Source: Monosiga brevicollis MX1
Taxonomy: Eukaryota
Reading direction: 5' to 3'
Length of the DNA stretch: 64,000 nt
Assembly: GCF_000002865.3 (NCBI RefSeq)
Contig: NW_001865049.1
Coordinates: forward strand, 316,331 to 380,330
Below the pieces are notes generated by a model that was not told the origin of the DNA, did no database searches, and saw nothing but the letters and a program-made list of their open reading frames with translations. Each line of letters starts with the position of its first letter. The stretch's first letter is position 1. This document shows, in pieces, positions 3,743-60,725 of the stretch. The position numbers and the translations under genes are program-made.

Positions 3743-4406
3743 GAGACGTGTTGCAAAGCCTTTGCTCAGATATACAACGCGGGGCCCGCGGCCCGATGTA
3801 ACGATGTGAATGGGGGTGGTAGTAACGTCTGGCGCAAAAAATGGTTCGCACGCTTCAATACCGATGAGAGACTTCGCGAGCATGCTTTTGCTTTGACACT
3901 TTGCAGTCAAGATGGTGCTTCAATTGGACATCCCAAAGAAAAAATCAGGACAAGGGATCGCGGATACAAGCAGGTGTCTGAAGCCAACCACGACCAGTAC
4001 ACACAAGAGAATGGGGAGACAATCGGAAGGGAATCAGGGCTTGATGACCTGAGCCACTTGCAAGCTAATCTGACAAGGTCAAAGTGCAGACGAGCCTTCG
4101 TAGTATCAACACTCAACACGATGCAAAGCGTGCCCATCGTCGCTGCTTGGCTCACATCTGCAAAGAGGGGCAGGTTAAGGGAAAGCTGTGCTGGAAAGCG
4201 GCGCAGAAGGAGGGGAAGGGATATGCATGTGTTCCTCCGCCTGTCCTCAATCCACTCCTAGAAGTCGCAAAGACGACAGAGAACGATGGCAGAAAAACAC
4301 TACGGACCACAAGAATCAGGATAGATCAAGTGAGGAACGATGTTGATACCAACAATATTGCTCGACCAAGGGAAGCAAACTCGCCTCATCAACCAAATCA
4401 CTGACC

Positions 4407-10000: not shown

Positions 10001-13000
10001 ATGGCAGCAACGGTACGCTCAGGTTTCGTGGTGCAAATCCTATCGACCTGCTTTCGCAGCCTTCTCAGAGCATGTTTTGCACTTGCGTCGGTGCGTTTGC
10101 AGAGGTGGGGACACGACGTGGCTCAGCCATCAGGTATGCTCGCCGCTGTCCGAAGAGCTATGGGATTGCTGTCAGTGTCAGGGCCTCATTCTGCTTTTGC
10201 TTGGTCATTATTTTACCATTTGTCGCTCGTGTCTTGCGTGTGTCTTTAGCTTGCTTAATTTGATGCGCCCTCGGCGTTCTTCGTACAACATTACGACCGC
10301 ACCTCCTCCTGTGGCTGAGACCGCAAGCGCAACGCGTCGCCATCTGCAAGCATCAGGGGTACGTACTAGGCGATCAACCAAGCAAGGCTGCCGGCTGCTC
10401 ATCGCACCATAGGCCAAAGGACTAACTCACGGCGCTCGATGGTTTGTCCGAGATCAGAGCACCACACTGAGTGGCCGCTTTGCGACCTCTTTGGACGAGT
10501 TGATTGAACGGATGCAGCGCTGCAACCCGCACTTTGTGCGCTGCATCCGTTCCAATGCGGCGTGTGAAGCAAAAGTTTTTGGTGTGTTTTTATCAACTGT
10601 GTCTTTCCTCGCCCCACCGGTGTGAGCCGCCGTCAGTCCTTTTGCTCGCTTGTCGCTCAACTCACGGCTGTTTTGTCGGCATCAACTAGAGCGTGCGCTG
10701 GTGTTGAAGCAGCTCAATTACACCGGTGTTTTAGAGACGACGCGTATTCGACGTGAAGGCTACTCGCACCGCATTGTGTTTGCTGATTTTGTCCGACGGT
10801 AAGGTGGCTAGTTGTGGCCGGTAGCTTGAGCAGCATCGATAATCGCATGTGTCGAAACGGTGAGACTCATGGCTCATATGATGCGCACTGGTGGTGGGAG
10901 CACAGCTACCGACACATTGGCTTTGCCCATACGACTCATGTCAAAGCCAACCCTGAGGCTTGTCGTGTGATCCTGCAGGCTGCTGAGCAGTTCCTTCGGA
11001 CACAAAATGAACAGGTGCATCTTGTTTCTTGCATTCTGCCGTGCCTTTTGTCAATCAAACCAACCCCATAACGGCTGAAGCGCATTTGGCTCACGTCCCT
11101 ATGCTCACAGCTTCAGGATCGTCTTCCCAGGCTAGATGGCTGGCAGATGGGGCACTCGAAGATTTTTCTCAAGTATTGGCATTTGGATGCCTTGCAGGCC
11201 ATCACCCAACACTACGATGCTGCGGCAACGGCCCTGCAGGCACGTTGAACCAACACCGGGCGACGGGTTTCCTCCAGCTCATGCTATACCTGTCCGGCAC
11301 TCACTTTTTGCCATTGTCTGCCATATGGGTAAAATATAGAGCTGCTTGCGCGGCTACCATGCCCGGCGACATTTCCATCAGATGCAGGCGAGTCTTGGCA
11401 AAGAAACAATGCTCGGTCCCAACACGTTGTGTTCTCATGTGCTTGCTCCTGTCGTTGTAGGCCGAGCAACAAAAACGCCGGGCTCTGGCCATGACGTTCT
11501 TCCAAGAGATGCGTGGTGTGAGCAAAGTCATCTTTCAATCGCTAGTTGCACTTGCGGACGCCGATGGCGAGCGTGTGTCTTTGGTACAGGCTCGCGCCTC
11601 CGCCCATCGTGACCGACAACGACATAAAGCCATCAACAAGTTTGATCGCAAGGACTTTTTCAAGTCAATCCACAAGTCTCGCCGTGACGTCGAAGGATGG
11701 TGGCTTCGCCATGAGCACCCACTCGGTACGTTTCCGTTTCTACAGCCAACGCAAGCAACAAAAGCATTCAAAACCCATGGACTGCTCGTTGATCACAAGG
11801 CCATGATGGGAAATGTGTCAAGTTGACCGCCCCCGACCCTTGGCCGTTTTCGGTGTCGTTGCTCGTAAAGTGCAGTCAATCTGGTCAACGTATGCCTGCT
11901 CTATGCGTAGGTAATCATTGCGACGCTGAGTTTCAGGTCTATTCCTGGTTCCATGGCTTGCTGGATCGTACCGGGGCTGACCTGCTACTGGAAGATACGG
12001 AGGATGGCACATTTCTGGTGCGCGTTTGCCAAGCGTATCATGGCTACGCCCTGGCCATGAGAACACCGACGCGCACACAGCACTTCAAAATAGAACTGAA
12101 CACCACGACGGTACGGTATGACTGGGCCATGCCCAAAGGGGCAGGCAGCATTATGCCGCCCGACGTCTAAGACCATGTTCTCACCCGCGCCACCTTCCTT
12201 TGTCTGCGGCATGGCCCACAGCATTGTTACGCCGTCTCAGGTCACCCAGAATTGTCATTCGACAGCTTGAATAAGCTCATTCAGCACTTCAAACAGCAGC
12301 CCATCGGCAACTTTGAGCTGAAAGCTGCCTTGGCCTGCCAGCACCCCTATCAACTTGGTGACTTGGACGTGCGCATTTGCAACGGAGTCGATACATCCCT
12401 CACACCTCAAAGCGTGGCCAAGGCTCGCCCAAAGCCGGTACGTTTTGACCAAATGTCTTTTTCTAGCGCGACACACACTTAGTTCTAGGCCGATTTAGCT
12501 TTTATTCTGCATTCACACCTGGTCGGCTGCGTTGTAGGTCATTGACATTCAGGTCGAAACGTCATTGCCAACACCCCCGCAGCCGTCACCGCGCCCCTCG
12601 CTTGCAAAAACAGAGCCTGTTGTCCAAAACACTTTGACCACATCGGTGCCGACTCCAGGTCCCAATTTCCGCCCCGAGTCCGAATATCAGGTGCCCGTGG
12701 GGGTGGGTTCACCGCCCTCGGCTACCACACCGCCTCCGGCTGTGACACCACCCATACCTGGGCCCGTCTCAACGCTACCCGGGATCAACTTGCTGGCAGT
12801 TGGTGGAGTTTCAACGCCTCCCAATGTTGACGTACGGCAATTGCGTGCGCTGGGGGGCATCATCGAATTTGATCCCAGCAAGTATCAAGCTGCCGGGCCA
12901 CCTATGCCTGAGACGATGTACCTGGACACAAGCTGTCCCAAGCCCCAGTGGCTACGTGGCCGAATCAGCCGTTTTGATGCCGAGCGCGAACTGCGCCACC

Positions 13001-33428: not shown

Positions 33429-36400
33429 ATGGCGTCGATGCAGGCAGCACAGCGAGAGGCGCTTGAGGCCATGCTCGGCGCGACGCCCGCCGCTCGCCGT
33501 GCCCGTAGCTTCATGCCCGACTGGAAGGTCCGCAGTGACATGTTGGCACACAAGGCCACACGAATTGGTGCTCCAGAGCATGGTACGAGCTTGATTGACG
33601 CTTGTCTGACGCGCGTGTAGGTTTTGATCTACGATCGAATCGGCATGAAAATTCTCGCCCCCCTGCTCAACGTCTCCGAGCTGCGAGACCTGGGTGTGAC
33701 GCTGCACGTGTCTATTGAAGCATCGCGTGAGCCCATCCATGGTGGGTTTTTCGCTTCAATTTTTGCCACCAGGCAGGCGCATACAACCCGCAGAGTCGTG
33801 CCTGTGCAGCCCTGCGTCCACCCCTGCGCTTCTTCCTGGTCTCTACTGCCCCCTTTGGCTTATGGTCCTGTTCCTGGCCCGTGCTTCTTCAGACGTCCCT
33901 GCTGTTTATTTCGTGATGCCCACGGAAGCCAACATCAAGCGAATCTGCCGCGACTGCATTGAGCGCCGCTACGGTTAGCCCCCTATGGAAGCACAGGCTG
34001 AGCCAAGTGTTCATGACAAGGTCCATTTTGCGGCTTTAGCCCCTCACTCCATTAATCATCGCCCATTCGTGGTTGGCACAGCGTCTTACCAGATCAATTT
34101 CATCACGACGGTGCCACGACCCTTGTTGGAGGAACTAGCGTCGACCACCGCCGAGGCTGGCGTCGCCGCAGACGTTCATCGAGTGTATGACATGGTGTGT
34201 CTGCCGTGCGCGCCGACCCCAAGCAACTGCTTCACGGATTCCTTTGTCGTCGATTTTCCATCTTTCTCCTCTGCGCGTCTCCTCGCGCGTCTTCTTGCTT
34301 CTCTCATTCGCGATCCTTCCTCTTCCCATGTTGAAAACCTCGCTGGTAATAGTACTCCAATTTTGTCGCCCTGGAAGATGAATTCTTTTCCCTGTGCCCC
34401 AGTGAACCAGATGCGCTCTCCTATGGCTCTCTCAACGCTGAGGTCTGCTTCGTGATCCTGAGCCTTCTATCTCATGACTTGTTTTCTCACCCTGCCCACC
34501 GTGAGATCCATCAACATTCACCAGTGTCATACGTCTCTCCACCCCGTCCGATTGTACTCATTGACAGGGCGCAAGTGAGCACCAGCTCATGTCAGCTATG
34601 AACGAGATGGTGGACGGCTTGTTCTCCGTTTTCGTCACCTTGGGTGTTGTGCCCATTATCCGGTGTTCACCAAAGTTTGTAATTGGTCCTGGGCCTCGTG
34701 CTTGCAAGATTGGTTGGCATGCCACTCATGAATTCGCTGCCTTGGTCGATACACCCCTGCAATAGAAATGCGGCCTTTCAGATTGCGGACCGCCTCAACA
34801 GCAAGTTTCGTGATCAGCTCAAGAACAGCCGAAGCACCATGTTTCAGGACCGCATGTCCGCCACTGGCAGGTACACAAGGGATACACTGAATCAGTGCTT
34901 TGTATGGCTGCCCAAGACTCCCAAGATGCACTGAGCAAAGACCAAGCGACCACTCTTATTCCCCGGTGCATGCACTGCTGCTCGTCCGTGCGCTCGCAGT
35001 TTCCAACGCCCCGTGCTGGTGCTCTTGGATCGCCAGCTGGATATGGCAACAGTGCTCCACCACACCTGGACCTATCAAGCCCTGGTTCACGACATTTTGG
35101 GCCTTGAGGTGCGAATGGGATCCAACGTTGCCGCCAACTTTTCAAACTGCCTCATGTGGATCCATTTTTGGCGCTCATGTCCTCTCCCCGTCATGTGCCT
35201 GTGAACCAGTCGAATAAGGTGACAATCATGGAAAAGGCCAAGCAGGAAGGGCAGTCTCCCAAGCGTCGCGATATTGTATTGGACAAGGATGACCGCTTTT
35301 GGCAACGCTACAAGGGCGAGCCCTTCCCCGTGGTGGCCTCGGCCATTGAAGAAGAACTTCAGGAATGCACGCGAAAGGAAAAGGAGATCAAAAACCTGGT
35401 ATGTATCCCGGTGCAAGGCGGTCTTGGGGCACGACATGGCGCGCTCTTTGGCTTGGCATCATCGCGGTTGCAGATCATGCGTGACAGCCATTTACTGAGC
35501 TCCTTCGGTCCACCCCACCAATTCATCCCCTGTCCCATATCCTTACTCCTTGCAGGGCTCTGCCGCTAGCACGGGTGCTGAAGCCGAGGCTGATTCGGGT
35601 GATCAAACCAGCAAGATTACGGCTGCCGTCAAGTACGTTCTGAAAGTCCCAAGGAGAACGAAAGCTAACAGCTCTGCTTGCGTCTTTGACCCACCTCATG
35701 CCGTTGTTCATCGGTCATCCACAGCTCACTGCCAGAGCTGCTCAAGCAGCGCTCGATGCTGAATTCACACATGGTACGATAGACCTTGGTTTGCACGCGC
35801 GTGCCCAGTCGGCTGCTGCGTGCCTACTAACTCACTTGTCTCTGAATCGATATTAGTCCCTGTTGACAAGCATCATGGACAACCTCAGTTCACGCAAGCT
35901 GGACGAGTACTTTCAGACGGAAGAAGAAGTCATGAACAAGAAGACTGTGAGCATTCCCGTCCTGGACATGCTCAAGAACCCAGAGGCTGGCACGCTTGAA
36001 GATCGGTATGGCCAGCTTGTTCTCCATTTGCAGCCACTGGCATACCCATGCCTATCTACGCCCTCACCATGAAATGCAACTGACCTCTGCACGCGCTGCC
36101 CCTGCCTCCTGCTGACGGTGACCACCCGTAGGCTACGTCTGTATATCATCTACTTGTTGGACGGCGATGCATCGGAGAAGGAACGTGAGGCGTGTGAGGC
36201 TGTGCTGGCTGAACAAGGCTGTGATCTGTCGTCGCTCAAGTTTTTGAACCAGCTCAAGGAACTGCTGCACATGCAGCACCAGCCCACTGTCTTGGCCAGC
36301 CACAGGTGAGGGAGTGAGGCTCAGTGCATAGTCAAATTGGCGCTTGATTTGAAAATCTTTGCTCATATCATGGGGTGCTCTAGTTCTGGTGGGCTCTTTT

Positions 36401-36983
36401 CCTTCAGCAAAACGCTGAGCCAAGGTGCCAGCTTTTTGCAGGGCGTCAAGTCCTTGATGCCCACGTCAGGTGACCTTCCCTTGACTCGCATCGTGGACGC
36501 GCTGATGGAAAACAGGACCTCAGAACTTGTGGCGGTGCGTTATCTTTTGCAAAGTGTTGATGCAAATGGCAGGACTTCTCGTCCGCCCGAATTGCGATGG
36601 GCGTTTTGCTCTTTGCAAACCCTGACCTTGTTCTTTCCGTTCTTTTCGCCACAGGATTACCCCTACTTTGATCCCAAGCGAGGAACAACCGAGCTGCCAC
36701 GCCACCGCGCTCCATTTGACCAAGCCCTGGTCTTTGTGGTGGGAGGGGGCAACTACACCGAGTTTCAGAACCTGCAAGATTATTGCAAAGTAAGAAGCGC
36801 CCGCCTTCTAACCCTCACCACAGCAGACCAGCCCCAAGGCTCATGCCCAGTGTGTCACTGCTGTAGCGCCATAAGGAGCGGAATATCATCTACGGCGTTT
36901 CGCAGCTCGTTCGACCGACCGAGCATTTGGACCAATTGTCTCAGTTGGGTAAAAACATGGGTGGCGGTGCCTCCTCTGCCTAA
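33429..36983 (+). CDS. SCFD1: Sec1/Munc18 family protein Sly1/SCFD1, multi-exon
   Basis: [91 protein letters not shown]. Confidence 0.93.
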
Positions 36984-37298
36984 GCGGACACCAGAACCGG
37001 CGTTGGTTCTCTCGGTCTCTGACCATGCATACGCATCTGATCAAACAAACAAGCAAAACGTTGAATTCAGCTAGACACTTCCTTCTGCTATGACTCGATT
37101 GTCACCGCGCAGAGCAACCCACTGAACCAGAAAGCTTCAAACTCGATCGAAAAGAGAGCAACATGTCAAGTCAAAACAATCAGAGACAAAGGGGAAAAAA
37201 AAACCTTACCAACCCCTGGTCCCACAAAAACGGCGGGCAACCTCTCACACGAACGGATACGCAACGCAAGGCGAGCAAGCCTGGCTCGCCCAAAAAGG

Positions 37299-37798: not shown

Positions 37799-40938
<3,140 letters not shown>

Positions 40939-41758: not shown

Positions 41759-43120
41759 TCACGAGGACATGGCGAAGCGACCGCAAATGACGTAGCCAAT
41801 GTTCTCAACAACCGCTCGGGGCGTGTCGACGACGGTGTAACGCATAACCCAAAGTGGTTGCCACTGAACGTTGATAGAATCGCCATCGCTGTTTGTCAGC
41901 GTTGTCTCTGGGTGCCGCATACTGGCAGGTGGCGAGCGGGGTGGCGAGCTGCACGGGGTCATGGAGGTTGGTGTCGTGGAGTTTGGCGTAAAGGCCTCGT
42001 GGCCACGGAGAACCTTGTTCATGATGTGCTGAAAATCCTCTTTTGTGAGGGTGGCGCCAGCGTCGTGGTGGGCCTGGAGGCGAATAGATTGCTCTCGGGC
42101 ATACGCACGCAGCTCGTCGGAAGCGGGTGCACCGCTCGTGCGAACGTCCAATTGATCGACACTGGGCCGGCGGCGACTCTTGCCCTCCAGATCGCGAAGA
42201 GCATCAACGCCCAAGTTGGCCACGCCCAAATGACGAACCAAGCCGGCATCATAAAGGTTCTCCATATCCTAGGGGGGGCAAAATCGAAAGAAGTCAAGAT
42301 GAAGCTTTCAGCTTTCAATCTGAATCGGTTGAGGCGAACAGTTCTTTTTGTTGTTTTCTGTTTTAGGAAAAAAAAAAAAGAGAGAGAGAGAGAGAAGGTG
42401 ATAATGGCTTGGGAAAACAGTCGGGAGAGTGTTTGACTACCGTACCTCCCACATGCCGCTGGAGGTCAGGCTCGAAGGTCCATCAGCGACAGGGTCAGCA
42501 ATGAGGGTATCAATGTACTCAAGGTTCAAGGTAGAAATCACTGCGAACATGTGGGGCAGCAGCAGCAGTTGGCAAAGCAAGGGTCAGGCTGAGGCATCGT
42601 CCTTTACTAGCATGATTTGTTGAAGAATGCACAGCAAAAAAAATGCGGGGCCCTTTGGGTGAAACCACGTACCACTGCGCAGAGCGTCTGACGCAAAACC
42701 TGCACGGTAATGGTCAAGGACAAAGAGCTTGGCAGTGACAGACTTTTCAGCGCGCTCCTCGGGTTTGATCTTGTCCATGAGTTTGGGATGGCCAATAAAC
42801 TGCAATGAGTACATTGAGTCATGGTGAATGGCACGCACGGGCATGCGCTGATTGTTCAAAGTACCAGAGAGAAACCGAGCCAGTCAAGTACGAACGTCGT
42901 TGGCGAGAACATAGTCGCCCGAATTGTACTTGCGCCAACAATGCATGGTGCACTTGAGGGCAGTGGTGATCTGTACGCGATGAGGCAACGGGATGAGCGC
43001 ATGCGGGCACTAATAATGACCAACAGAGATGAGAGCTAGGGTAAAGAAAAAGGGCGGAAGCGGGTTTTACCTCGTTCTTAGTGGAGGTCTTTGCGTGCAA
43101 CTGGTGATTGCAGCTATCGC

Positions 43121-43185
<65 letters not shown>

Positions 43186-43616
43186 GGCGGAAAAACAGCA
43201 ATCCGGTCAGTCCGGCAACAGGCAGGACATCAAGGCAGGTGCCAACATCACCAAGTCAACTCGATTTCGTGTTGGGAGCCAGGAGCCACAACGTACCGGC
43301 GGACGTTACCCGTGTGGATCATGACCACGCGGCTCAGATCAGAGAGACCATCGAGGCCGACAGGGACGGGTTCGGTGGCATACGCGCCGGCCGCGGTCGG
43401 CGCGGGATGAGGTTGCCGCATCATCTCAGCAGAGGCCGGAGTGGGTAGTGTCGGAGGCTGAGAAGTGAGGGCCACCGGAGCAGAGGGTTGGTGGTGGCAC
43501 TCGGCGCAGACGTCGAGAAGGGCTTGTTCGCGACCAGCCACGTCCAGCAGCTGCTCATCAGCGGTCCAATAAGGCGGAGCAGAGGTCAGAGCGTGAAGAA
43601 CAGCGGCAGCTGACAT
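41759..43616 (-). CDS. GCLM: Glutamate-cysteine ligase modifier subunit (aldo-keto reductase fold), multi-exon
   Basis: IHTGNV, IKPEERAEKSVTAKLFV, MWE|DMENL...LGVANL, DELRAYA...IRLQAHHD, WQPLWVMRYTV...RAVVENIGYV parallel GCLM (LQTGNL, INPDEREEMKVSAKLFI, WVPLWLLRYSV..RGIIKSKGYI). Confidence 0.88.
43122..43180. repeat. Intronic (CA)n microsatellite
   Basis: Directly visible. Confidence 0.95.
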
Positions 43617-43997
43617 GATGGGGATACCGAGCAGAGCGCACGCCAATGAATGAGCGTCGGCAGCCGTGCGCACAATCGGGCCGTCTGTGACGTTATGATT
43701 CCAAAGGCAAACCGGATGGCAGGTGCGCAGGCGTATACGAGGGTCTGTCTGATTGTTTTTGTGTTGTCGTGATCAGCGACCCGTGCGAGAGAGAGAAAAT
43801 GAATGGCACGGTGTGTGTCGTGGGCGCACAAGCATCAACAACTGGATCTCTCTCTCTCTCTCTCACTCTCTCTCTCTCTCTGTGAGAGAAAAAAAGCCAG
43901 GGACTGGGCTGGACGGGGGCTGGCTGACGCGGACAGTCGTGATAAACAACCACCAGCTGTAAGCTGTAGCCAACCCTGTCTGTCTCACTCGACCACC

Positions 43998-44038
43998 AAG
44001 CCCCAGAGCCCCAGAGAGCCCCAGAGAGAGCCCCAGCC
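43998..44038. repeat. Short tandem repeat of (AGCCCCAGAG)-like units
   Basis: Four agccccag cores with variable AG spacers. Confidence 0.8.
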
Positions 44039-44739
44039 AAGCGAGCGCGCGCCGTCACACACGCACAACACACACGAGAGAGGTTTTTTTGTTTTTTTTT
44101 TGCTGCAACGGCCAGGAGCCTTGATGTCTGTGTGTGTAACGAACGAGTATAGCGGAACGAGTAACGTACTGGGAAAGGGGTTACCAACGTAACGTGAAAA
44201 TGGTGTTTGCCCTTGGCGTGTCATCATCATCGTGTCATGATGATGATGAGTTGTTGGTGTTAAGCTTGTTGGTGTAAAGGCTTGTTCGGTCATGTTACTG
44301 CAGCAGCTGGGAGAGTTGATGTTGGGAGGCCTCTCTCTCTCTCTCTTTCTCTTTCTCTCTCTCTCTCTTTACTTTCTCTCTCTCTCCCACGTGATGATGA
44401 TGAGATGAAATCGGGACACGTAACGTTGCCCATTAGACTTGATCATGATGTTGTCATGCGCTTCGCACATGCGGTGGTTCAGGTGTAACCGTCATCACAC
44501 TTTTGGATCATGGCAGCTCCCACACTGAAAATTGTCAGCATCGTCAGTTGTTGCGCAATGGGGGTGGAGGCGTTTGGAGCGGGTGGTACGCTCACACTCG
44601 CTTGTTCGGGGCATACAATCAAGGCTGCAATATGGTGCAGCGAGGCATTGGCGATGGGATCACCAAGATTCAAAAAAGTGGGCCAGAAACAAAACGGAAT
44701 TGGGCTGAACGGATTCATGGCTAGAAGCTGCTCAATTCA

Positions 44740-45021
44740 TTACAGATCAGTCTCGCCGTCGGCTCCCGGACCCTCCTCGTATTCCAGGGTCAGACGGCGC
44801 GTCGGGCTAGGCTGGTCGGGATCGGCATCAACCTCATCCCTATCATCCTGCTGCTCTGTCCCTGTGGCAGAACGCGTGGGCAGAACCTGTGGCGTCATCG
44901 TCGTCGGCTCTGCCCCTCGTGGTGGTGGTGGCATCTCGCCCAAAAACTGCGGAAGCTGCCCATCCGAAAACCAAACAGAGGCATGAGCCCGGATATCCCA
45001 TGCACCATCAACAAGAACTGA

Positions 45022-45055
<34 letters not shown>

Positions 45056-48000
45056 CGTCGTCTGGCCCCGATTCCATTGAAAGCCTGTCGCAAGCACACG
45101 CAACCAGACATTAAATGGGTGAGCAATCAACGAAATCCCATGTCCCATGTCCCATGTTCACTCGACTCCCGACTCGATGTCCAGCCCTTCACACGCCTTG
45201 CTCTGGTCACAGCACGTACCCAGACTGGTGGCCCTGTGAACGGCTGCTGCGTGTCTGAAGCCTGCACGTGAATCAACATGAGCTGGACGCCATGGCCCGC
45301 ATTGTCCAGAGCCACCTCCGATTTCACAAATCATGGCCTCTCGAACTTACCGTGCTGCGTCAGATACACGCCGTTGCATCAACAAGGGCGACGGCGGTTC
45401 AGATCGAGACAAGGACAGCTCCTGCCCGTTCCCACACCAGATCAGACCGCCCATGAATCGGCATAGGTGCAACAGAAAACAACACAAGATGAAGAAAATC
45501 AAGGCATATCGCCACAACATACGGCAGCATCAGGCATGGAGGACTTTGGTCGACGACGCAACAAGCCCGACAGAGCTCCTCGCGAGCGACGTGGCGTGGT
45601 GGCACTACTCCCATCCAATGAAGCTTGGAGGGCAGCTTGCTGTTGCCTGGCACAAGCAAAAAAAAAAAACGGGTAATGATAGCGTGAATAAATATAACTC
45701 TCCAATCACTCTCCTGCCTGCAAAACGGCACAATGATGTTCGGGTGCACGACGCACCGTTCAGCCTCATTGATGAGCTGCATTTGCTTGTGGGCCAAGAG
45801 GCGGTGATACTCCTCCTCCGCCTCGCGAACCATGACGAGCTCATCCTCCGTGGGTGTCGGAAGCTTACGCACCACGTCGACCAACAAGGCCGCCGCCGTG
45901 TGTCGAGCGTCATCGTCCCCGATGGCCCTGCGTATGAGAAACCCCGACACAGCCACGCTGAGTGTCCAGCACCCAACACCTGCCCGAGCCAAGCATCCTC
46001 ATCTCATCCCTACGCCCACCACCAGCACCAAGCACCCTCGCAATTTCCAACTCACTCGGGCATGGCCGGAATGCAGTCCAGTAAGAGACGGTTGAGTCGA
46101 GCAAAGCAGCGGGGCGCGGCCTGCAAGAATAGGCTGCATGGCATCTGCTGAGCCGGACAGTTGCACAGAACCTGAATCACCGTGCCCATCATGCCCATAT
46201 GCTTCTGCACAAAGTCATTCAGAGGAAGCATGTATGGCTCCTTCTGCCCAAAGAGGACGCCGTTGGCCAAGTTTTGCAGCACTTTAGAAATGAGCGTCAA
46301 AGACCGTGCCACGCCAGCCTCGGGAATGTCCTCTTGCAGTTCAAAGAGCTGGGGGTTCAAGATTGCTGGACAAATCAAGCGAAGAAAGAAAAAGCCGACG
46401 ACTGCCGACTTGGGTGCTTCCTCATCTCCCGGGAATTTGGCGCGCACCGATGAGTGCAAGTGGTGAAACACATATTTCAGCTCGCGCGGCACCTGATCGA
46501 GTGCGCCCGTAATACTTTTCCATATCGCCTGAGCGTAGCTGACCAAAGCTTTTTCGTTGGCAGCCAAGTCCCGCATGGGATCCACGCTATCCACCCGCGT
46601 GGGATCCATTTCACATGATGTCTTTAGGTCGTACAGCGCTTGAATATGGCTTGATAAGATATCCACCAAGTACGTGCCCTGATGAATGCAAAGCTCCTTC
46701 ATCAGATAGTCCAGGCCCTTGGACGCCAACGAGTTGCCGCGAAACAAGGTCTCCGGATGTGTTGCCGCCTAGAAAGGGTAGCCACACCTCATTGGATGAT
46801 GTGAGCGCCGTTCTTAACCAAGAAAGCCCCAAGTCTCTCTGGACGCAACTACCCGCACTACTTTCAGAGTTTGCCCGGCCTCCTTCCTCTTCTCAAAAAA
46901 AAAAAAGAAAAAGGAATAATCAAAAGAATAATAACAAAAAGCGATTCAAAAAAAAGCGCCACGCACCTGCACCTCAGCTCGAAGCATGGTGATCATGACC
47001 GACAACAAGGCATTGTTGGCCTGCGCTGTTGACAAGACGGCCTATCATTCACGTGGTTCCAAACGCCAGGCGAAACCAGAAGTAGGTGGCACTGAGTCAT
47101 CGCCGGACTTGATACAGCTGGCATGCTCGACGGCTTGACGCGCAGTTGCAATGCAAGGAAGGCACATGGCTGAACCATACCGTCGCAAGATCGACGCGTT
47201 GTGCGGATGGAACCGCTGCGTCCATCAGCTGGCAAATTGGAAGCAACAGCTGTGCACAACCAAAGTATGACGTGGTGATTTAGACTGGTTTCCCAACGTC
47301 TCTGCGGATATAGCTCATAGCTGACACGTAGCAGTACAAAGACAGACCTCATTCGAAGGCTTAAAGGCATCTCGAAGTTCCTTATACACTGGTGCTGACC
47401 GGATGTACTCATCTGAGCAAAGCAGAGCAGCCCAGACCATGAAATTAATGGGCAAGAAGCCATGCTGGGAATCGTTGCATGCAAAGAACCCTCGAACAAC
47501 ACGAGCTCGGTGCCGCAAGAACTCACCGGTATGCGTTACATTTAGTCGAATGCGGCCAACTAGGTCACCTACAGTGGGGAAACGTGGAGAAGATGATAGA
47601 AGCGGCGGTATGAGCGTGAGCGCATCTGAACGACGGCAGCTGGACGTGATGCTCAAACATGTTGCTTAGCCAGGCCCTGGATGGGACACAAAAAAAGAAC
47701 GATGATGGTCGATCCATACCGTCCCCGGAGAGTAAGGAATGCCACTCGTCGTGCGCACCACCCATGGTGTTGGCAGAGATGAGAACTTCGGCACGTCTGC
47801 ATCCACACGTGCCGGCAGTCACCATGATATCAACACCTCGCACTCGCTGAAGCTTGACATTACTGTAGCAACAAAAAAACAGATAAAAAAAAAGAAAAAA
47901 AGAGAAGAAGAACGACGAACCCGACGACATCGGCATCGCGTCGGTCTTTGATGCCAGAGCCAGCCGAGAACTCGGTGGCTGACACTCGACTCCTGCCGGC

Positions 48001-51000
48001 AATAGGACGTACGAGAGCGTCAGTCGCACAAACCAGCAGGGCAGACCTACTTCCCCTACCGCCACCAAACTCACCCCTTGCGCGGCGAGGGATCAGCGCG
48101 CGCAATCGACGCCACCTTGCGCTTCAGGGCCGCAGCTTGATGCCGCGCCGTCGCGCTCAAGGCACTCGAGGCTCTGTCAAGCAAACCCAAGTTGACCGGG
48201 TGAGCGTGAGCCTGATCTCATTGGGGACTTGCATTCGGCCGCTCACTATACAGAGGGGAGGCAGCTACGTACTTGACAATCTGGATGATGACGCGCTCAA
48301 ATTGCAGAGGTACATCATCGAATTCAAAGCTCTGGCCCCAGTACGGCTCGGTGGTGGCGCTTTTCACCTACAGACGGCACCGCCGCCCGGCAGCGATGTT
48401 GACGGAAACTCCGGTGGGTCAGCGCGACGCGACGTGCCCCTCCTCAAACGTTGCTGGTGAAAGCACGCACGAGCCCACCTGTGTGCGCGCTTGACGCTCA
48501 TCATCCAGCAAAACCTCAGCTACGTAGTCCCCACTTTTTATCAGCTCCTTGGCCTCGGTGACCTTGACACTGATGGAGCGCACGAGGTGTGGGCGCTGAT
48601 CCACGTTGGTGGGCGGCTGGCAAATGTGCGTCAATTCGTTGAACCAGCGGTGGTATGTCTCCCGGTCTGGGCATGCTACGCAGATTGTGCGAGATCTACG
48701 GCGACAGCGAACAGAGCGAGGTGAAAAAGAAGACATAGGAGATTGAAAGGGAACGACAAAGAGGCAGGACGACACGATCAGACGGATTGCAGCCCCGCGC
48801 CCGTGCAAGGCTCCTCGGTGGCTTGTACTGACTGATTAATCACTTGAAAAACGTGCGGTCGGCCAAACAAGGATGCGTGCACGGGTCGCACAACTCGGTT
48901 GCCAAAGGGTAACGTCACCACCAATTTGGGGTGGTCCGCCTGCCATCAGAATGTCAAAATATACATGAAACAGCAAGTTGACTGCACACACCCTGGTCGG
49001 TTGTTCAAGCCCCACGGGGTCAGGAAACACGGCGGATCGATGAAGATGAAACAAGTGTTCCTGCGTACGTTGTCGGATTCATATTGGTAAAGCCGGCGTT
49101 TATGGCGCACAACGAGAAACAGATAGTCTTTGAAAGGCCTGCTCAGTCCGGGTTGGATTCCATTGCGGGCAGGCAGGTGTTACAGATATGAGACGTGACA
49201 TAGCCAGGTGATCTGCTATCGAAGGAAGCCGATGGCAGGCACTTTACAGACTTGATGGTGTCCATGCTCTTGGCTTGCAAATGTGCTTTGAGGGTGGGCG
49301 CAACAACGCTTGTCACAGGCATGTCCATGTCATCATCGGCGGTGCTTGCCTGGCGCAAGGTTGAGACACCATGGGTGAGATCATGAAGATTGGGGGCCGA
49401 CAATCCTGACAGACGACATCAGGGACAAGTAGGGGCCCAGGCTAAACTGACTTCGGCGATGCGTTCCTCAAGGTCGGCGCGCACTTGCAGTCGCTGAATG
49501 ACGTGGGCCAGCTTCAGCTGGGCGTCGTCACTTTCCAGTGTTGTATCTCTGAACAGACCCCAAAACGGCAAAATAATGCGAAAAGAATGCGAAAAGAATG
49601 CGTTCAAGGCAAGCCCGGCACGTGAGAGAGCGTGTGGGTGCTGGTATAGCTTCTGGGCCGTCAAGAAGAGCTCCGACGCACCGTGCGATTTGCGCCGCCC
49701 GGATGAGGGCTTGGCGTAAGCGCCAACTGCGATCTTCTTCCTTCATCTCCAATTGCTGCACACAAGAACCCGCCACAAAGCACATACGCACGTGCACATG
49801 ATTGGGTCGACGCGCCAGTGCAACGGCAGAGCACACGGTGAAGATTCAAAGGTCTGCAACGTACCTCCAGCACCTGCGGCATTTGCAAATTGTAATGATC
49901 TTGCTGCGCCTAGAACGGCAGCGCACACAATAAAAAGAGTGAGTACAAGTGTACAAGCAAGACACAAACATAACACCTGAGCAAAGCGCCTTGCAACTTA
50001 CCTCCTTGCAGGCCTGCTCCTGGTCTTGAAGCTTGGCGCGGGCGTCTTCAGCCTTGGACTCTGCCGCCTGATGCTTGGCTTCGAGTTTGCTCACGGCCGA
50101 CGCTTTGGCACCAGGGTTGGATTGGGCGCGATCACGATTGGACCGAGTCTCATCGGCCTCCTTGGTGGCAGTGTGATGGGCTGATTGCAGCCTCTTGAGC
50201 TCAGTGTAGCTATCCTTGAGCTGCTTTTGCAGGCGCTGTCCCTCCAAAACTTGCTGCGGTGGAGAAGAGCAAGAAGGGCGACGCAAGGCAAAAGCACATG
50301 AGTTCATTCGGTTTGCTAAACGCGGGCGAACCCAACAAAGGCCGCGCCGCTCGTACGTGTTTGCGAAATGTTTCGGTTTCGCGACAGCATTGAGCCAGTT
50401 CATCCACCACGTCGTTTAACAATCTTTGCGCCATGATTTCCTGTACGAATCAAACAAAGGAGAAGACCCCATATCACGACGCAACCACGTTGACGTTGGA
50501 TCGATGTGCCACTGCGGGACACTGGAAAAGCAGGAACACTGGAAAAGCACTACATGTGCACACGAAAAATGACCAAGAGGCGACGGACGGAGCTCGTACG
50601 TGGCGGCGCGCCGTGGCAAAGGTTTCCTGAATCATCAAGTAGACGCCCGACATGATACCAGAGGAGCTGAGGAAGTTGATTAGACAAAGGACCGTGAGGT
50701 AGTTGCGGGAGGCATCCAACTTGCAGTCGCTGGACTGGCGAGGCGTTTGGGCAACGAGGCACAACGCACGATGCACTGTCATCCGTCACGGTGCCCAGGT
50801 CCAAGGCTTTATCGTCGGGAACAAGGTCTTTGAATTGAGCATGAATGCGTTCTAGAATGTCATTTGCGTGTGCGTGGCTGGGTGAGAGTGTGTTGCTGCC
50901 AACGAGGCGGGGATAGGCTGTCGTGGGAGCGAGGCAGAGGTGCGGACCGAGGCTGCGGCTGTACTCGAGTTCAGCCTGCTGGCGACGCTTGATCAGACTG

Positions 51001-51216
51001 AGAACATCGCGGGAAAATTTGAGACCATCTTCCGTGATGCGCGCAGCGCTATCAAAGGAAAACTACAGTCAATTGATGAGCCATGAGGACAAAGGTGTCG
51101 ATCAGTCGTTAATCGTCAACGAGCGAGATGGGACCTCGACGCACCAAGAGGTGGGATTTGAAAGAGGCCTGACGGGCATCGATGGGCGTCAGATACTTGG
51201 GTGGTTGCATGGTCAT
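44740..51216 (-). CDS. F-BAR-PH-C2-RasGAP protein with C-terminal ETDL (class I PDZ-ligand-like), multi-exon
   Basis: FCH motif FKSHLL|FSFDSAARITEDGLKFSRDVLSLIKRRQQAELEYSRSL; F-BAR helices (...QDHYNLQMPQVLE|QLEMKEEDR); PH-like end CPDRETYHRWFNEL; C2 SISVKVTEAKEL...PYWGQSFEF; RasGAP TLFRGNSLASK, FFFLRLICPAILNP, LISKVLQNLAN, KEPYM. Confidence 0.82.
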
Positions 51217-51688
51217 GGCAGAGGTGAACACCCGCGCGATGCGGGCCTTGTCCAAAGCTTCAGCCAAGCTGAGCTGACCGCCCGAGCCGCGCCAAAGACC
51301 AGTTGGTTGTCCAATTGCCAGCACCACCTAACATGCAAATGCAGTTGCAGGTGGTATGACATTGTATTTCTCGGGCGCGCCGACTGTCTCGGCTTGAATC
51401 AAAGCCAACAGGGTTGCAAAAGTCGAGCGCAAGACCAGGCATCACTCTTACCTGCCCCACCAAAGCAGCTCACCCTCACGGCTCTAGGTTGGTCCGATTC
51501 GGGACAAGACACAACAGGGAGGAGTGCCCGGCTCTCACAAGCCAAGCGTCCTTGAAGTCGAGCAAGAGACCGTGGCACCCAGTCTCATCCCCTTGATTGC
51601 CCAGCACCCAGCCAGATCCAAAGAGCTTTGACTACAGTAGATGACCAGGCGCCAGTTCCCCCCAGCGCTCCGCTGCGCTGCACGACCG

Positions 51689-51856
<168 letters not shown>

Positions 51857-52573
51857 ACAAAAACCCCGACGACAGCAACGAAGAAGAAGAGGAAGTGCTT
51901 CAGGCTCGTAAGTGTGAGACTTGAACACAGCAATGCAGTTGGTATGCAGTGTATGTGTGTGTAAAGGCAGTTCGTCAGGCCAAACGCATTGTGAATAAAA
52001 TGTCTGACATCGGATGTCAGATCGTTCGGACCGGATTACTGTTTGATGATATGAGTATCGTGTCCGGCGTAGAGGAGGGGGCGGGCGAAGACACGGTCAT
52101 GTTATCATGAAGATTGATGCGGGATTCAATTGGCTTCGGAAGAGGCAGAGCAAAACCCCCAAAAAAAGAAAAAAAAAAAAGAAAAGAAAAGAGGAAAAAG
52201 CCGCAGCACAGCTGGGAAAAACTCCCGAGTTGCGACGGTGCCTGGGGCGAGCAGCAGCCAGAACAGGAAAAGACGACAAAAAAGGGACATGGCCACTGCT
52301 ATTCACGCGCACACACAGGCGGCCCTTCATGGGAACAGACACTCTAAAGTGAACTGAAGGACAAGGGACCGAGGGAAAAAAAGCAAAAGGAAAGGAAAGG
52401 AAGAACATCACAAATGTAGGAACAACAAAGAAAAAGAAAAGAACGAACCAAAAGGAAACCTTCCCTGGCATGGTCCAGATTCAACTACGCGCAGAGTAGG
52501 AAGACGAGGACAGTCATAAAAGACGGGGGCCAGGTGGGCGTAGTGCAGGGTGCAGGGTGCGGCGTTCAGCCAC

Positions 52574-53371
52574 TTATTGAGTGGACTTGGCATCCTTGGC
52601 CTTACGCATCACGGAGATGTTGCCCTTGCCCCAGTGGATGAGGAGGGTCTCGCGGATGAGGAAGAGCATGGTGGCAATCTGGGCGATGGAGAAGAAGCAC
52701 CAGATGCTGGCCTGCTCCATAAGGTTATCGGAGATGAAGGCGGCCATGACGGGGCCAAAGAGGAAGAGGAAGAGACCCTGAACAACCATGCCCTTCTTCT
52801 CGTAGAGGGCGAAGAAGGGGGCAAACATCAAGAAGGAGTGGATGGAGGCAGACATGACGTAGTAGGAGGGATCGGCCATGGGGACCGACCAGCCGAGGTG
52901 AACCATGCTCTGGGTCTTGAAGGTGCAGAGCTTGTCACCACGCAGCCACTCGGTGGAGGGGCTGGTCTCGGGGTTGACGTCCATGGTGTTGAGTTGGGGC
53001 ACGAAGGAGAGGGGGTAGCGCATGAAGAGGAGGAAGCCGCCGATGAGACACAGACGCTTCACGACAACGTAGCGGTCGCGGTACTTCTCGCTCTTGGTGA
53101 GGCTGGCGTTGATCACATGGCAGTAGTAGGGCTGGAGGCAGATGTGGAGGAAACCGAGGAGGGTCAGGACCTGGTTCACCAAGGTGTCGCAGGTGGGATC
53201 AGACAGACCCGAGGCGATGTAGATGTACTGGATGGCCTGAAGAAACTCCATGGTAAAGAAGAAGAAGACGCCCGACGCCAGCTCCGTGTTGTTGGTCTTG
53301 GAGTAGATCCACCAGGAAGCGAAGAGGCCGACGGCGGCAAAGCCGGCCGACATTTCACCGGTGAAGCACAT
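52574..53371 (-). CDS. Intronless polytopic membrane protein (~265 aa), DUF5765-like
   Basis: Single uninterrupted ORF MCFTGEMS...MEFLQ...HICLQP...LCTF...HLGW...EQASIWC with about 6-7 hydrophobic segments and strong C/G-ending codon bias; family name is from recalled motifs. Confidence 0.8.
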   Translation of the reverse strand: MCFTGEMSAGFAAVGLFASWWIYSKTNNTELASGVFFFFTMEFLQAIQYIYIASGLSDPTCDTLVNQVLTLLGFLHICLQPYYCHVINASLTKSEKYRDRYVVVKRLCLIGGFLLFMRYPLSFVPQLNTMDVNPETSPSTEWLRGDKLCTFKTQSMVHLGWSVPMADPSYYVMSASIHSFLMFAPFFALYEKKGMVVQGLFLFLFGPVMAAFISDNLMEQASIWCFFSIAQIATMLFLIRETLLIHWGKGNISVMRKAKDAKSTQ

Positions 53372-54215
53372 GATGGCAGGCGCAGGTTGAACGAGAAAGG
53401 TTCTATCAAGACAAGTAGCTCGGCTAAGAGCTACGAGATGCGGCAATGATCCCTGCAAAAAAAAAAAAAAATGCCAGGCGATCTTTCGCATTCACGACCC
53501 AGAGCAATAGCAATAGCAAAGCGCGCACAACGAGATCGGCACGAAAGGCAAAGGGGGGGCCAAAGGGCAAAGCACGCCAGGAAAGGGAGCGCGAGAAACC
53601 TGTTCAACACCTGTCAACGTGGGCACCTCTTGCAACACGTTGAAGGGAAAGAGGTGGTGTGACTCTTTGGCTTGAAGGCTGTTGAAGGGGTTTTGGCTAA
53701 GGATGATGAAACCGATTCAGGTTTTTGCTGACAATCATGCAGTGGATAAGCGACACGTGGGGCACTCGCGTTGAATGTTGCATGGTATAAACACACTTTG
53801 TGTACAGATCGGACACGATTGTAACGGTATTGTGTGATCAACGCTACACTTTGCTCAATTCAAACAGACCCACGCCCACGCCAAAGCGCGATTCCTCGAC
53901 GCTGGGCGACAACAACTGTTCTGGCCAACAGAATTCTGTCAGCATGGGGTCAATCTCTAACCTCGTCCACGGCCACGACCCCCGTCTGGACCAAATCAAA
54001 GTCCGAGGGTATAGTTGGTATAATTACATTTCCGAGGGGGTTGTATTCGTCCGTGCGAGAGTCACATGCGCGCGCGCTCTCTCTCTCTCTTTTTTTTTTT
54101 TTTAAATTTTTTCGAGTGCGGTGCGCTGCTGTCCCCGGCCCGTCCTGTGTCGCTCCGTGCCTTCCGTATTTCTCATTTCTCTGGGCTGCTTTAGGTAATC
54201 AATCAACCAGCAGAC

Positions 54216-58779: not shown

Positions 58780-60725
58780 TCAGCTTCTTGCAGTAGCCGA
58801 TATGGGTGCCCCTGGAGGCCCTGGAATAAGGTGCGAGATGCGGTCTTGCCACTGTTGGGCAATGCTGGCGGACCGCGCCTCTAGGTCCCAGGTGCGGTCC
58901 GGGTTGACAATCAAGAGACGGTTGCCATCTTTGATTTGGATGGTCGTGGAGGCCTGAAGCTCGATGCGCCCCTTGAAATTGGTCGGTTCACCAGCATTGG
59001 CATCAAAGCCGGCGTAGTACTCGAGGCCCGTGGAAGTGAGAATACAATACCGGTTTTTTCGCCCCGTCAGCTGGATACCACCCGTCTGCAAAACACGTCA
59101 AAAGAAGGCAAACAGACAGGTCGCGTTATGTCACAGCCAGGTTGCTCCGCCGAGCTGAGCCGAGCGAGCCAAGCAACGCCAGGAGTAGCACGGCACGCAC
59201 CACTTTCCAACCACCCTTTTTCATAAACCACTCGCCCGACGATGCGCCAGCGCCGGCACCAGACACCGCGTTGGCAGCGTGGAGGCCGACTACGGGATAG
59301 TTGACGAGTGTCACTTCACCGCTACACACACACACACAAAACGAGGGCATGGGGGCGAGACCAACGCGAAAATGAGTGGAAAACAATCGCTATGTGCAGG
59401 TCATGGACCAATCTGTCTCAGCGAAGCAAACACGGGCCGCCTGAACCTCGCGGCACAGACCTGGCGTAGCCCACTGCGGCAGCTAGGACCTCGTCGTCAG
59501 CAGCGACGGCACAGCAAAGCGCGGTGGCCTGCATCCGACTCGCGTGCAAGACGTTGAGGGTGGCGGTCGACCACAACAGCAGCGTGCCATCGCCGCTGCA
59601 AGACACGGCCGTGCCGTCCTGGGCAATGGAAAAATCGGTGACCCAGTCTTCATGGGCGGCAAAGCTGGTAAAGGTTCGATTTCGGTCCCATATACCAATG
59701 AGGTGATCACTGCTGGCGGTAAAGAGTTTGTCCTGATACGTCTGTATCCGGTTGATGGGGGCACTGTGGCGGGTATCCCGGAACATGGTTTGGCCCTGTC
59801 GCCAATCAACAACATGCAGTGTGCCCTCAACATCCCCAAGAGCCAACGCGGTCTCGCCAAAGGCTTCACCGGGCGCACGGCTGCACAGCGATTTGACCAC
59901 GGCACCCCGGTGCAACCGATGAACGGGGCTTGCACCGGCGCGGGGATCAAAGAGCTGCAGCTGGCCACTCCAATCGGAGACGGCAAGCATATTTGATCCG
60001 CCGTCCGACACAAACGTGCACAGATTGACCCAATCTGAAAAGGCGGACATTGTCAAAAGAGATTGCTGTGTCTCTACATCCCAGAGGCGACATGTACGAT
60101 CACCCGATCCCGAAGCCAGGTGGCGGCCATCGGGTGCAAAGGCCAGGCAGCGCAGCCATTCATCATGGCCCACTAAAGCACCGCATTCGCTGCCATCTTT
60201 CAAAGACCAAAGTCGGGGTGTCTGATCAAATGAGCAGGTGCAGACGAGGCGACCTGTAGGGCAGCGAGACGAGGAAACGAGGCAAAGGTAGTACACACTG
60301 TGAGACGTTTCAGAAAGCCTTGCAGAGCAGCTTTGCCACCGGTTGGACCGGGAACAGCAAACTGAGTGGATGGGTGCAAGCGGAGATCGCGCTGACCTTG
60401 CGGGTCCACAGCCATGTCGGATATGGGTTGCTCATGAGCATTGATGGTAGCACGCTCGGAACCATCCGGTAGGTTCCAGAGGCGCACAACGCCATCACCC
60501 GATGCGGAAAGCAGCGTGTCGCCGCTCAAAGCCAGTCGCGCGACATCAATGGCATGGCTGCGAAGGTGCACCGTTGACTGTCACATCACCGACGCAAGGG
60601 AACGCGCCATGTTAGTTGAAAGCGGTGCCAAGGTTCTGGGTTGTTTGGGACATTGGTGAACAGGGGAGGGCGTGAAGAAACATTGAGCTGCGTACCGAAA
60701 CGGCTGTGTGCGCGCCATTAGCCAT
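58780..60725 (-). CDS. WD40-repeat protein with a C-terminal PH domain, multi-exon
   Basis: About seven WD repeats (LLSASGDGVVRLW, GHDEWLRCLAFAPDGRHLASGSGDRTCRLWD, etc.). Intron 59322-59460 joins in frame GYA|SGEVTLVNY...GEWFMKKG...RKNRYCILT...KGRIEL...RTWDLEA...QQWQDRI. The 3' end is uncertain. Confidence 0.78.

Follow-up and report, generated by a model that had tools for sequence, protein, structure and literature searches.

A Monosiga brevicollis gene predicted to encode an F-BAR domain joined to a PH-C2-RasGAP cassette

The locus and its transcript

The gene considered here occupies positions 44740-51216 of the minus strand in a 64-kb stretch of DNA from Monosiga brevicollis MX1 (the window, to which all coordinates refer; + and - denote its strands). 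The order of domains in its predicted product is F-BAR, PH, C2 and RasGAP, followed by a disordered tail that ends in the residues ETDL. The window as a whole looks like the DNA of an intron-rich eukaryote because of its G+C content (~54%), its many dinucleotide microsatellites and its short open stretches on both strands. On reading the stop-to-stop open reading frames (ORFs) of the minus strand from 51216 to 44740, pieces resembling an F-BAR domain, a PH/C2 region and a RasGAP domain are recognized. The model assembled from these pieces has 28 coding exons and a coding sequence (CDS) of 3342 nt for 1113 amino acids, with an ATG at 51216-51214 (-) and one stop, the terminal TAA at 44742-44740 (-). 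The elements of the transcript are:

51216-51145, 51062-50948, 50851-50770, 50666-50600, 50440-50357, 50253-50002, 49909-49865, 49755-49682, 49548-49452 (-): coding exons 1-9 of the gene model
49349-49252, 49138-49069, 48939-48833, 48695-48479, 48367-48273, 48173-48075, 47992-47921, 47796-47720, 47568-47527 (-): coding exons 10-18
47412-47348, 47249-47181, 47041-46967, 46768-46056, 45927-45757, 45646-45523, 45421-45351, 45261-45220, 45084-45054, 44955-44740 (-): coding exons 19-28
51217..51708 (-): 5' untranslated region (UTR), comprising the rest of exon 1 (51327-51217), a GT..AG intron of 124 nt (51451-51328) and a non-coding exon from ~51708 to 51452
45024..45053 (no strand): (AC)15/(GT)15 microsatellite, from a tandem repeat finder, that opens the last intron (45053-44956) on its 5' side and supplies its GT donor
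51691..51851 (no strand): perfect (AG)80 microsatellite, from the same finder, where the transcript begins or immediately 5' of it

Eleven sequencing runs match the locus, two of them with 0.99 of the sampled words and the rest with 0.15-0.36, and the contigs of four runs were aligned with the window. Run X3 provides a spliced contig of 3736 nt and run X5, from the same study, one of 3450 nt; the two extend from 44714 or 44718 to beyond 51600, or to 51302, and contain no letter that differs from the window. (X3 and X5 are taken to be RNA-derived because their contigs are spliced, the run label being only a guessed 'RNA?'.) The number of splice joints reported is 26, and all 15 that are listed read CT..AC on the plus strand, that is GT..AG on the minus strand. 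A run of genomic type, X1, yields an unspliced contig of 6695 nt across 45063-51600 with 0 differences, and 0 contigs at every listed joint. Run X8 yields two contigs, both unspliced; runs X8-X11 contain about a third of the sampled words.

In building the model, the canonical phase of each listed joint was used and contig offsets served as limits of length (348 exonic nt for 50253-51145, 384 nt for 49068-50001). GT..AG chains with an open frame were then ranked by likeness to the nearest homologue; for the 5' part there were 18,267 open chains, of which the top one scored 381 and the runner-up 367. Five introns in the segment 50253-49069 (636 exonic nt) were assigned by hand from the sequence and subsequently verified in the assembled model. 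The introns 45053-44956 and 47920-47797 overlap repeat stretches that were skipped in the alignment of contigs, and both are placed by the model. The length of the CDS matches the contig offsets exactly, position 51216 corresponding to position 3368 and 44740 to position 27 of the X3 contig (record 4). All 27 CDS introns of the assembled model are of the GT..AG type, with lengths of 82-198 nt. A stop-free frame of 3342 nt over 28 exons, with 27 of 27 introns canonical and a product that is colinear with full-length proteins elsewhere, puts the locus far beyond chance. It is one expressed, intron-rich and spliced gene of choanoflagellate type.

The 5' UTR is supported by contig pieces at 51145-51325 and 51450-51600 and by 108 further contig letters, its outer end at ~51708 presuming that no further intron intervenes. 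Translation of the spliced UTR places an in-frame stop 45 codons 5' of the ATG, with no ATG in between. A change in the length of the (AC)15 repeat at 45024-45053 would shift intronic sequence only.

These results bear directly on the original prediction, which had placed an F-BAR and a PH-C2-RasGAP module in a single gene and proposed that a cDNA joining the two be sought. The spliced X3 and X5 contigs span both parts, as does the one open frame of 28 exons, and the ends of the locus stand exactly as they were proposed; the interior boundaries have shifted, the RasGAP exon lying at 46768-46056 (46140-46770 had been given) and the F-BAR exons at 51216-49452 (in place of 49440-51216).

Domains of the product

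Pfam searches of the window were confined to single pieces, 12 in number, of which one gave a strong RasGAP match, one a weak FCH match and the other 10 no match, and the assignment of domains in the spliced product rests on its orthologues and on alignment with them. The RasGAP exon was used to search longer proteins, and the first three matches, of 1121-1156 aa, carry precomputed Pfam FCH, C2 and RasGAP labels (PH in two of them). These three closest relatives are P0001 (Choanoeca flexa EP00730_P004915, 1121 aa), Salpingoeca rosetta PTSG_03032 (1156 aa) and P0003 (from EukProt). In a fresh Pfam scan of the three, RasGAP scores 114-127 bits and FCH, PH and C2 are also matched (PH of P0001 below the cutoff). 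End-to-end alignment with the window product gives 560 identical columns of 1100 for C. flexa (51%), 444 of 1091 for S. rosetta (41%) and 363 of 1063 for P0003 (34%). The predicted domains and catalytic residues are:

49452..51216 (-): F-BAR (FCH plus coiled-coil), residues ~1-296, exons 1-9
48614..49325 (-): PH domain, residues ~305-415, exons 10-13
47727..48592 (-): C2 domain, residues ~423-572, exons 13-17
46056..47412 (-): RasGAP-related domain, residues ~595-895, exons 19-22, its core in the 713-nt exon 46768-46056
46739..46741 (-): codon of Arg668, arginine finger within LFRGNS, aligned to the Arg of LFRATT in p120GAP chains 8BOS/1WER
46379..46381 (-): codon of Arg788, the arginine of the FLR motif, which lines up with 'flrlicpailnp' of p120GAP
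44743..45927 (-): C-terminal tail, 218 residues (896-1113), of low complexity and rich in L/R/E/A/P/S

The RasGAP domain is the most readily recognized: Pfam RasGAP (PF00616) matches the window ORF 46052-46768 with E 8.6e-31 and 107.9 bits (cutoff 28.3). Among solved structures, the exon is closest to RASA1/p120GAP (6.3e-30), SynGAP (6.4e-25) and neurofibromin (6.1e-24). When a family profile is compared with C2-GAP structures, RASA1 (9BZ4) is matched with E 3.7e-134 and SynGAP (3BXJ), second best, with E 4.1e-113. LFRGNS occupies residues 666-671 (46747-46730, -) and FLR residues 786-788 (46387-46379, -), the stretch FFFLR(788)LICPAILNP aligning on p120GAP FVFLRLICPAILNP. In p120GAP the arginine finger and the FLR arginine are R789 and R903. 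F-R-x-N (with the arginine finger, R673 of P0001), F-L-R (F791-L792-R793 of P0001) and a downstream Lys are invariant in 28/28 family members, and the finger, the FLR and the Lys are all kept in the window product. Overall, the product keeps 29 of the 30 invariant family positions and 31 of the 34 that are near-invariant. Identity to P0001 is 52% in the RasGAP region and 42% in the linker that precedes it. The domain retains all of the catalytic hallmarks and is predicted to be active.

The N-terminal region of the product is predicted, from its likeness to orthologues and solved structures, to be an F-BAR domain, complete and of CIP4/FBP17 type. The spliced product covers positions 1-292 of a hidden Markov model (HMM) of the F-BAR region made from the three orthologues (E 2.3e-98), with 51% identity to P0001. 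The orthologues themselves pass the threshold of Pfam FCH, PF00611, with 39.7, 50.4 and 49.5 bits and the Codosiga protein with 59.1; that of S. rosetta also matches GMIP-like_FCH (28.5 bits). Compared with solved F-BARs, residues 1-298 of P0001 match FBP17 (2EFL, E 6.4e-12, 21-262 against 10-242) and CIP4 (2EFK, E 1.3e-9). A profile of 28 family members strengthens these matches, to E 1.8e-30 for 2EFL over positions 3-280 and E 9.2e-24 for CIP4, and extends over ~270 positions of the F-BARs of GAS7, PACSIN1-3, Fes, PSTPIP1, syndapin and Imp2.

The PH region is 72% identical to that of P0001, and the PH domains of the other two orthologues pass the Pfam cutoff with 33.2 and 40.2 bits. The family profile matches the PH structures of cytohesin/GRP1 with E ~1e-12. 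(A reading of the PH domain as a 3-phosphoinositide binder was dropped, the basic signature being incomplete as the alignment is read.) The C2 region is 67% identical to P0001; C2 of the orthologues scores 32-38 bits in Pfam (cutoff 22), and alignment of the family profile with 9BZ4, the C2-GAP structure of RASA1, begins at position 424. Inspection of the alignment points to a basic insert of ~45 residues within C2 (~492-545, in the region 48173-47921), common to the choanoflagellate proteins.

The tail is less conserved (35% identical to P0001), with short conserved patches. A class I PDZ ligand is a C-terminal S/T-x-hydrophobic-COOH, and ETDL, encoded at 44754-44743 (-) at the very C-terminus, fits this form by the motif rule, as do the ends of the C. 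flexa and S. rosetta proteins. Among 40 C-termini, an ETDL end is common only to these three craspedid choanoflagellates; P0003 ends in -S-E-I. In the shared tail patches, an RR-x-T/S site just before the tail end resembles, on reading the alignment, a site for a basophilic kinase. A conserved LPxFL patch was considered as a Homer ligand and dropped, its spacing being unlike that of the PPxxF motif.

Much of what the original prediction had said of the protein is borne out by these comparisons: the LFRGNS finger and the FLR that it had called intact align with p120GAP and their arginines are invariant in the 28 family members, the ETDL end that it had read is followed directly by TAA, and the assignment of the cassette to the p120GAP/SynGAP/DAB2IP kind agrees with the structure matches, the family profile and the GAP-domain tree (below).

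Relatives, origin and genomic surroundings

Beyond the three closest proteins (P0001 is 61% identical to the window on the RasGAP exon), the exon search yields fragments, Capsaspora CAOG_06967 and, farther down, many vertebrate RASA1 proteins that contain SH2/SH3. When 1.84 billion representatives are searched with a profile made from the three orthologues, there are 7138 matches at E<=0.001, of which 1160 are at <=1e-30. The best 40 of the 7138 were scanned with Pfam. FCH (E<=0.001) and RasGAP occur together in 29 of these 40 (26 above the FCH cutoff), 10 have no FCH match (several of them with a partial F-BAR by the orthologue HMM) and one is an SH2-type RASA1. The orthologue F-BAR HMM finds its domain in 52 of 273 collected sequences, the window model and the three query proteins included.

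Thirty representatives were looked up, and 24 have organism names; S. rosetta is additional to these. (Lineages were looked up for C. flexa, Quaeritorhiza and Rhodelphis.) The 24 include the choanoflagellates C. flexa, Codosiga hollandica, Diaphanoeca grandis and Didymoeca costata (the last with no FCH match), Capsaspora CAOG_07684, Amoebidium parasiticum, Fonticula alba H696_04547 and 16 entries of chytrid-grade fungi, Spizellomyces SPPG_06623 and Piromyces finnis among them. Rhodelphis marinus, not an opisthokont, is represented by a transcriptome record that could be foreign. No animal or dikaryon is present among the 24 named representatives, no search having been aimed at absence in those groups. 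Full-length colinear proteins of 1079-1156 aa occur in at least four other choanoflagellates, and several of these are complete ORFs of independent transcriptomes. Capsaspora has both types of protein, an SH2-type RASA1 (CAOG_06967) and an F-BAR type (CAOG_07684). Judged by sequence, the window protein is the predicted orthologue of S. rosetta PTSG_03032 and a member of what appears to be an old, uncharacterised F-BAR-PH-C2-RasGAP family across unicellular opisthokonts. Some members have extra C-terminal modules: SH3 in Capsaspora CAOG_07684 (P0122/P0268), SH3 and a weak SH2 in Amoebidium (P0123), and OCRE in Rhodelphis (P0132).

The build is thus on public record: precomputed Pfam labels for FCH, PH, C2 and RasGAP are available for PTSG_03032, CAOG_07684 and SPPG_06623, many chytrid entries bear the automatic name 'Ras GTPase-activating protein 1' and others are 'hypothetical protein'. 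The database proteins that share the order FCH/F-BAR, PH, C2, RasGAP with the window protein (those of C. flexa, S. rosetta, Codosiga hollandica, Diaphanoeca grandis and Amoebidium, together with CAOG_07684, H696_04547, the chytrid SPPG_06623 and those of other chytrids) are all automatic predictions. The original prediction had held that no F-BAR joined to such a cassette was known. In view of these public, auto-annotated proteins and of the 29 in the best 40 profile matches, 'unknown' does not stand; 'undescribed in searchable literature' does. No paper that describes or tests an F-BAR-RasGAP fusion was found in the full-text literature (subscription-only papers and InterPro lay outside reach), and three locus tags of the family occur in no paper of the full-text literature searched. 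As far as could be seen, a query for F-BAR, RasGAP and 'domain architecture' matches only a paper on human SH3 domains. In its accessible portions, a study of the evolution of the Ras switch that includes Monosiga notes Monosiga-specific domains in Ras regulators, and FCH has 0 occurrences in its text passages and six of its seven supplementary files (PMC3141262). A study of Homer partners in S. rosetta mentions, in the parts available, a srGAP homologue, and none of the strings '03032', 'srGAP' and 'Ras GTPase' occurs in seven of its supplementary files, file 1 being outside the search (PMC4137706).

The position of the protein among RasGAPs was analyzed with a tree of ~300 GAP-domain residues and 60 chosen rows (35 F-BAR, 11 RASA1, 6 DAB2IP, 4 kickxellomycete and 4 outgroup), the groups being identified by Pfam on their rows. 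Partial F-BAR rows were left out, as were two long-branch rows of an 80-row quick tree. The window protein pairs as sister with that of C. flexa (100/99), S. rosetta joins the pair next (100/98), and all three fall within a choanoflagellate F-BAR clade of seven rows (100/99). The RASA1 (99/99), DAB2IP-type (100/100) and kickxellomycete groups each form one clade, and all of these groups, with the F-BAR forms added, are united in a single clade (100/99) relative to the chosen outgroup, in which the F-BAR forms lie along an unresolved base. The best tree requires three F-BAR label changes, and a single F-BAR clade is not rejected (difference in log likelihood 3.25, approximately unbiased p 0.385). 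The 80-row quick tree places 49 F-BAR and fragment rows on one side of a branch, with a support of 23.

Kickxellomycete proteins were seen to have heads of another sort: P0012 (Tieghemiomyces parasiticus), and P0019 (Dispira simplex) of the same type, represent this group, P0012 having an N-terminal BAR_3 match of 30.0 bits (cutoff 31.7) before its PH-C2-RasGAP and no FCH. On this same cassette, the kickxellomycete head is perhaps of BAR type, either diverged or swapped.

Comparison with better-known proteins sets the family apart by its N-terminus. RASA1/p120GAP, the best solved relative of the GAP exon and of C2-GAP, has its PH-C2-RasGAP order in common with the window protein, and likewise the arginine finger and the FLR; it has an N-terminal SH2-SH3-SH2 where the window protein has its predicted F-BAR, and the latter falls outside the RASA1 clade. 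P0001-P0003 have no Pfam match to SH2 or SH3. SynGAP, DAB2IP and RASAL2 (PH-C2-RasGAP-DAB2P_C) likewise share the cassette and form a clade of their own, a group with no F-BAR; DAB2P_C (PF12004) is absent from P0001-P0003 at E<=0.01 and present in 6/6 DAB2IP-type rows scanned. SynGAP carries a C-terminal PDZ ligand, which the ETDL of the window protein parallels. F-BAR domains are found fused to HR1-SH3 (CIP4/FBP17/Toca), to RhoGAP (srGAP, Rgd1, GMIP/HMHA1) and to kinase (Fes/Fer). Over ~270 positions, the window F-BAR is homologous to solved F-BARs, best to those of FBP17 and CIP4, and the logic shared with these fusions would be that of a curvature- or lipid-binding dimer bearing a signalling enzyme; the predicted effector is here a RasGAP, as opposed to the RhoGAP, kinase or SH3 adaptor of these F-BAR families.

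No second gene is hidden in the locus. The antisense and flanking ORFs at 45282-46151 (+), 47858-48460 (+), 50917-51555 (+), 44489-44986 (+), 43693-44220 (-) and 43248-43772 (-) have no Pfam match, and no Rfam family is found in 43000-53000. CT/AC repeats lie on the gene's 3' side at 43122-43180, 43847-43881 and 44331-44386. On the strand of the gene itself, its neighbour upstream is an ORF with DUF5765 at 52574-53491 (-; E 2.7e-17); the spliced contig stops short of it, near 51708 within the (AG)80 repeat. Farther off on the plus strand, Myosin_head ORFs at 7317-7931 (E 3e-22) and 9001-10263 (E 8.8e-14) are followed by an SH2 ORF at 12538-13425 (E 5.7e-7), and 7317-13425 (+) is probably one myosin-SH2 gene, an unusual pairing. 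Other gene fragments are an Rrp15p at 2841-3809 (+), a GIT Spa2-homology domain at 25489-26298 (+), a Sec1 family segment at 36310-37074 (+), a weak PBD/CRIB at 40213-40938 (+) and a WD40 propeller at 59418-60431 (-). A run of N (assembly gap) at 17946-18464 adjoins 18465-18640, where a long (GT)n repeat and poly-A sequence are found; the gap and these adjoining tracts account for a bin of 0.237 G+C.

Proposed function and its significance

The product is probably a membrane-targeted GTPase-activating protein (GAP) for the Ras family, in which an F-BAR, a p120GAP/SynGAP-like PH-C2-RasGAP and a disordered tail with its ETDL end are provided by one gene. To judge from its families, the F-BAR region would dimerise and bind acidic, shallowly curved membrane, and PH and C2 would contribute further lipid contacts. 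The GAP domain would thereby be brought beside membrane-anchored Ras-GTP, or a relative such as Rap or R-Ras, and Arg668, inserted into the active site of the GTPase, would trigger hydrolysis of GTP. With hydrolysis driven by Arg668 at F-BAR-bound membrane, the Ras signal would be turned off locally where the membrane bends (for instance at sites of endocytosis or engulfment). Through ETDL, the protein may be anchored to a PDZ scaffold.

A number of observations weigh against this interpretation or limit its reach. The spliced contigs come from one study only, in runs whose RNA label is a guess, and 11 of the 26 joints, plus two at skipped repeats, were placed from offsets, GT..AG ends, open frame and homology. 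The Pfam FCH match on the window ORF 50550-51062 (exon 2 alone) amounts to 21.3 bits (E 3.4e-4), below the cutoff of 27.8; it is weak because only one exon of 38 codons could be scanned. PH and C2 have no Pfam match on single exons of the window, and the PH domain of the nearest orthologue, P0001, scores 19.5 bits, below the Pfam cutoff of 25.1. The F-BAR region has no net basic charge (45 K+R vs 49 D+E). The sequence does not determine the substrate (Ras, Rap or R-Ras) or the site of action, and biochemical or localisation data were not found for any family member in the searchable literature.

Several other explanations can be offered. The locus might comprise two neighbouring genes, one for the F-BAR and one for the RasGAP, with the long contig merging two transcripts; a contig across two genes is not in itself proof of a single transcript, and the spliced contigs have a single source. 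This is nevertheless very improbable when a single stop-free frame passes through all 28 exons, the PH and C2 exons fill the interval, and the colinear proteins of other choanoflagellates and the best profile matches carry both domains in one chain. A chimeric join in the genome assembly is hardly credible at all. The window does have an assembly gap and many microsatellites, but the gap is 26 kb away, the 6695-nt contig of run X1 passes through 45063-51600 without a difference, the spliced contigs of another study agree to the letter, and the domain order recurs in other species. Inactive RasGAP-like domains exist, as in IQGAP, and the product might be a scaffold of that manner with a dead GAP-like domain, its F-BAR, PH and C2 serving for localisation only. 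The RasGAP exon does find the IQGAP1 and IQGAP2 structures at a distance (E 8.3e-6 and 5.3e-8, respectively). The arginine finger and the FLR arginine are present, however, and invariant throughout the family, and active GAPs are far closer (6.3e-30 for RASA1 vs 5.3e-8 for IQGAP2), so that a dead domain is improbable.

Of a different order is the suggestion that the GAP is active and the F-BAR is not a curvature sensor of cups, which we regard as quite possible, if short of likely. The F-BAR might instead act at clathrin-type endocytic sites or on flat membrane or cortex, or it might be dimerising or autoinhibitory, and the substrate may be Rap or R-Ras. FBP17 and CIP4, the closest solved F-BARs, are binders of endocytic tubules, and some F-BARs, Fes and Imp2/Cdc15 among them (Fes and Imp2 are also matched here), attach to flat membrane or work at the division ring. 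SynGAP, which ranks second among the structural relatives of the C2-GAP part, is a dual Ras/Rap GAP that needs its C2. Of the Dictyostelium BAR proteins tested, most are reported at endocytic puncta and only RGBARG is at cups (PMC7416115), which also counts for a site other than the cup. Nothing speaks for or against a particular site: the occurrence of the family in phagotrophic or zoosporic unicells fits engulfment, endocytosis or motility equally well.

RGBARG provides the best tested model for the role at phagocytic cups that the original prediction had proposed. This RCC1-RhoGEF-BAR-RasGAP protein is reported at the rim of macropinocytic and phagocytic cups, where it restrains the Ras patch; in its absence the Ras domain is enlarged and elongated bacteria are taken up less well (PMC7416115). 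Like the window protein as predicted, it has a BAR-superfamily domain and a RasGAP (active in RGBARG) in one chain. On the other hand, its BAR is classical, it has RCC1 and RhoGEF and no p120-type PH-C2, and it comes from another supergroup; RGBARG is to be seen as an analogue of the family and not as one of its members. The three orthologues have no Pfam match to RCC1 or RhoGEF. For the product of the present gene, a role at phagocytic cups may be entertained as a candidate idea.

That BAR-superfamily domains occur joined to Rho GAPs, kinases and adaptors is textbook matter, and a BAR-RasGAP that shapes feeding cups in Dictyostelium, RGBARG, has been on record since 2020. What the present gene would add is that in the closest unicellular relatives of animals and in early fungi, an F-BAR is set directly on a PH-C2-RasGAP cassette of the p120/SynGAP type. 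The value of the finding is limited in that the sequences are already public and the function is read wholly from likeness to other proteins. S. rosetta and Spizellomyces punctatus, in both of which the family occurs, are transformable model organisms. The family raises the question of how Ras was shut off in space before there was a RASA1 recruited by phosphotyrosine, and also that of why the F-BAR form was apparently dropped by animals and higher fungi.

Tentatively, and with the odds rather against it, F-BAR-PH-C2-RasGAP can be thought of as the ancestral opisthokont form of the PH-C2-RasGAP group, kept in naked, engulfing or zoosporic lineages and lost or re-headed in animals and higher fungi. 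If that were so, the form would have been kept in choanoflagellates, Capsaspora, ichthyosporeans, Fonticula and chytrids, and the cassette would have been re-headed with SH2-SH3-SH2 (RASA1) and as SynGAP/DAB2IP in animals, and with a BAR_3-like head in Kickxellomycotina. It would then imply an ancient tie of Ras shut-off to the shape of the membrane, replaced in animals by phosphotyrosine and scaffold control.

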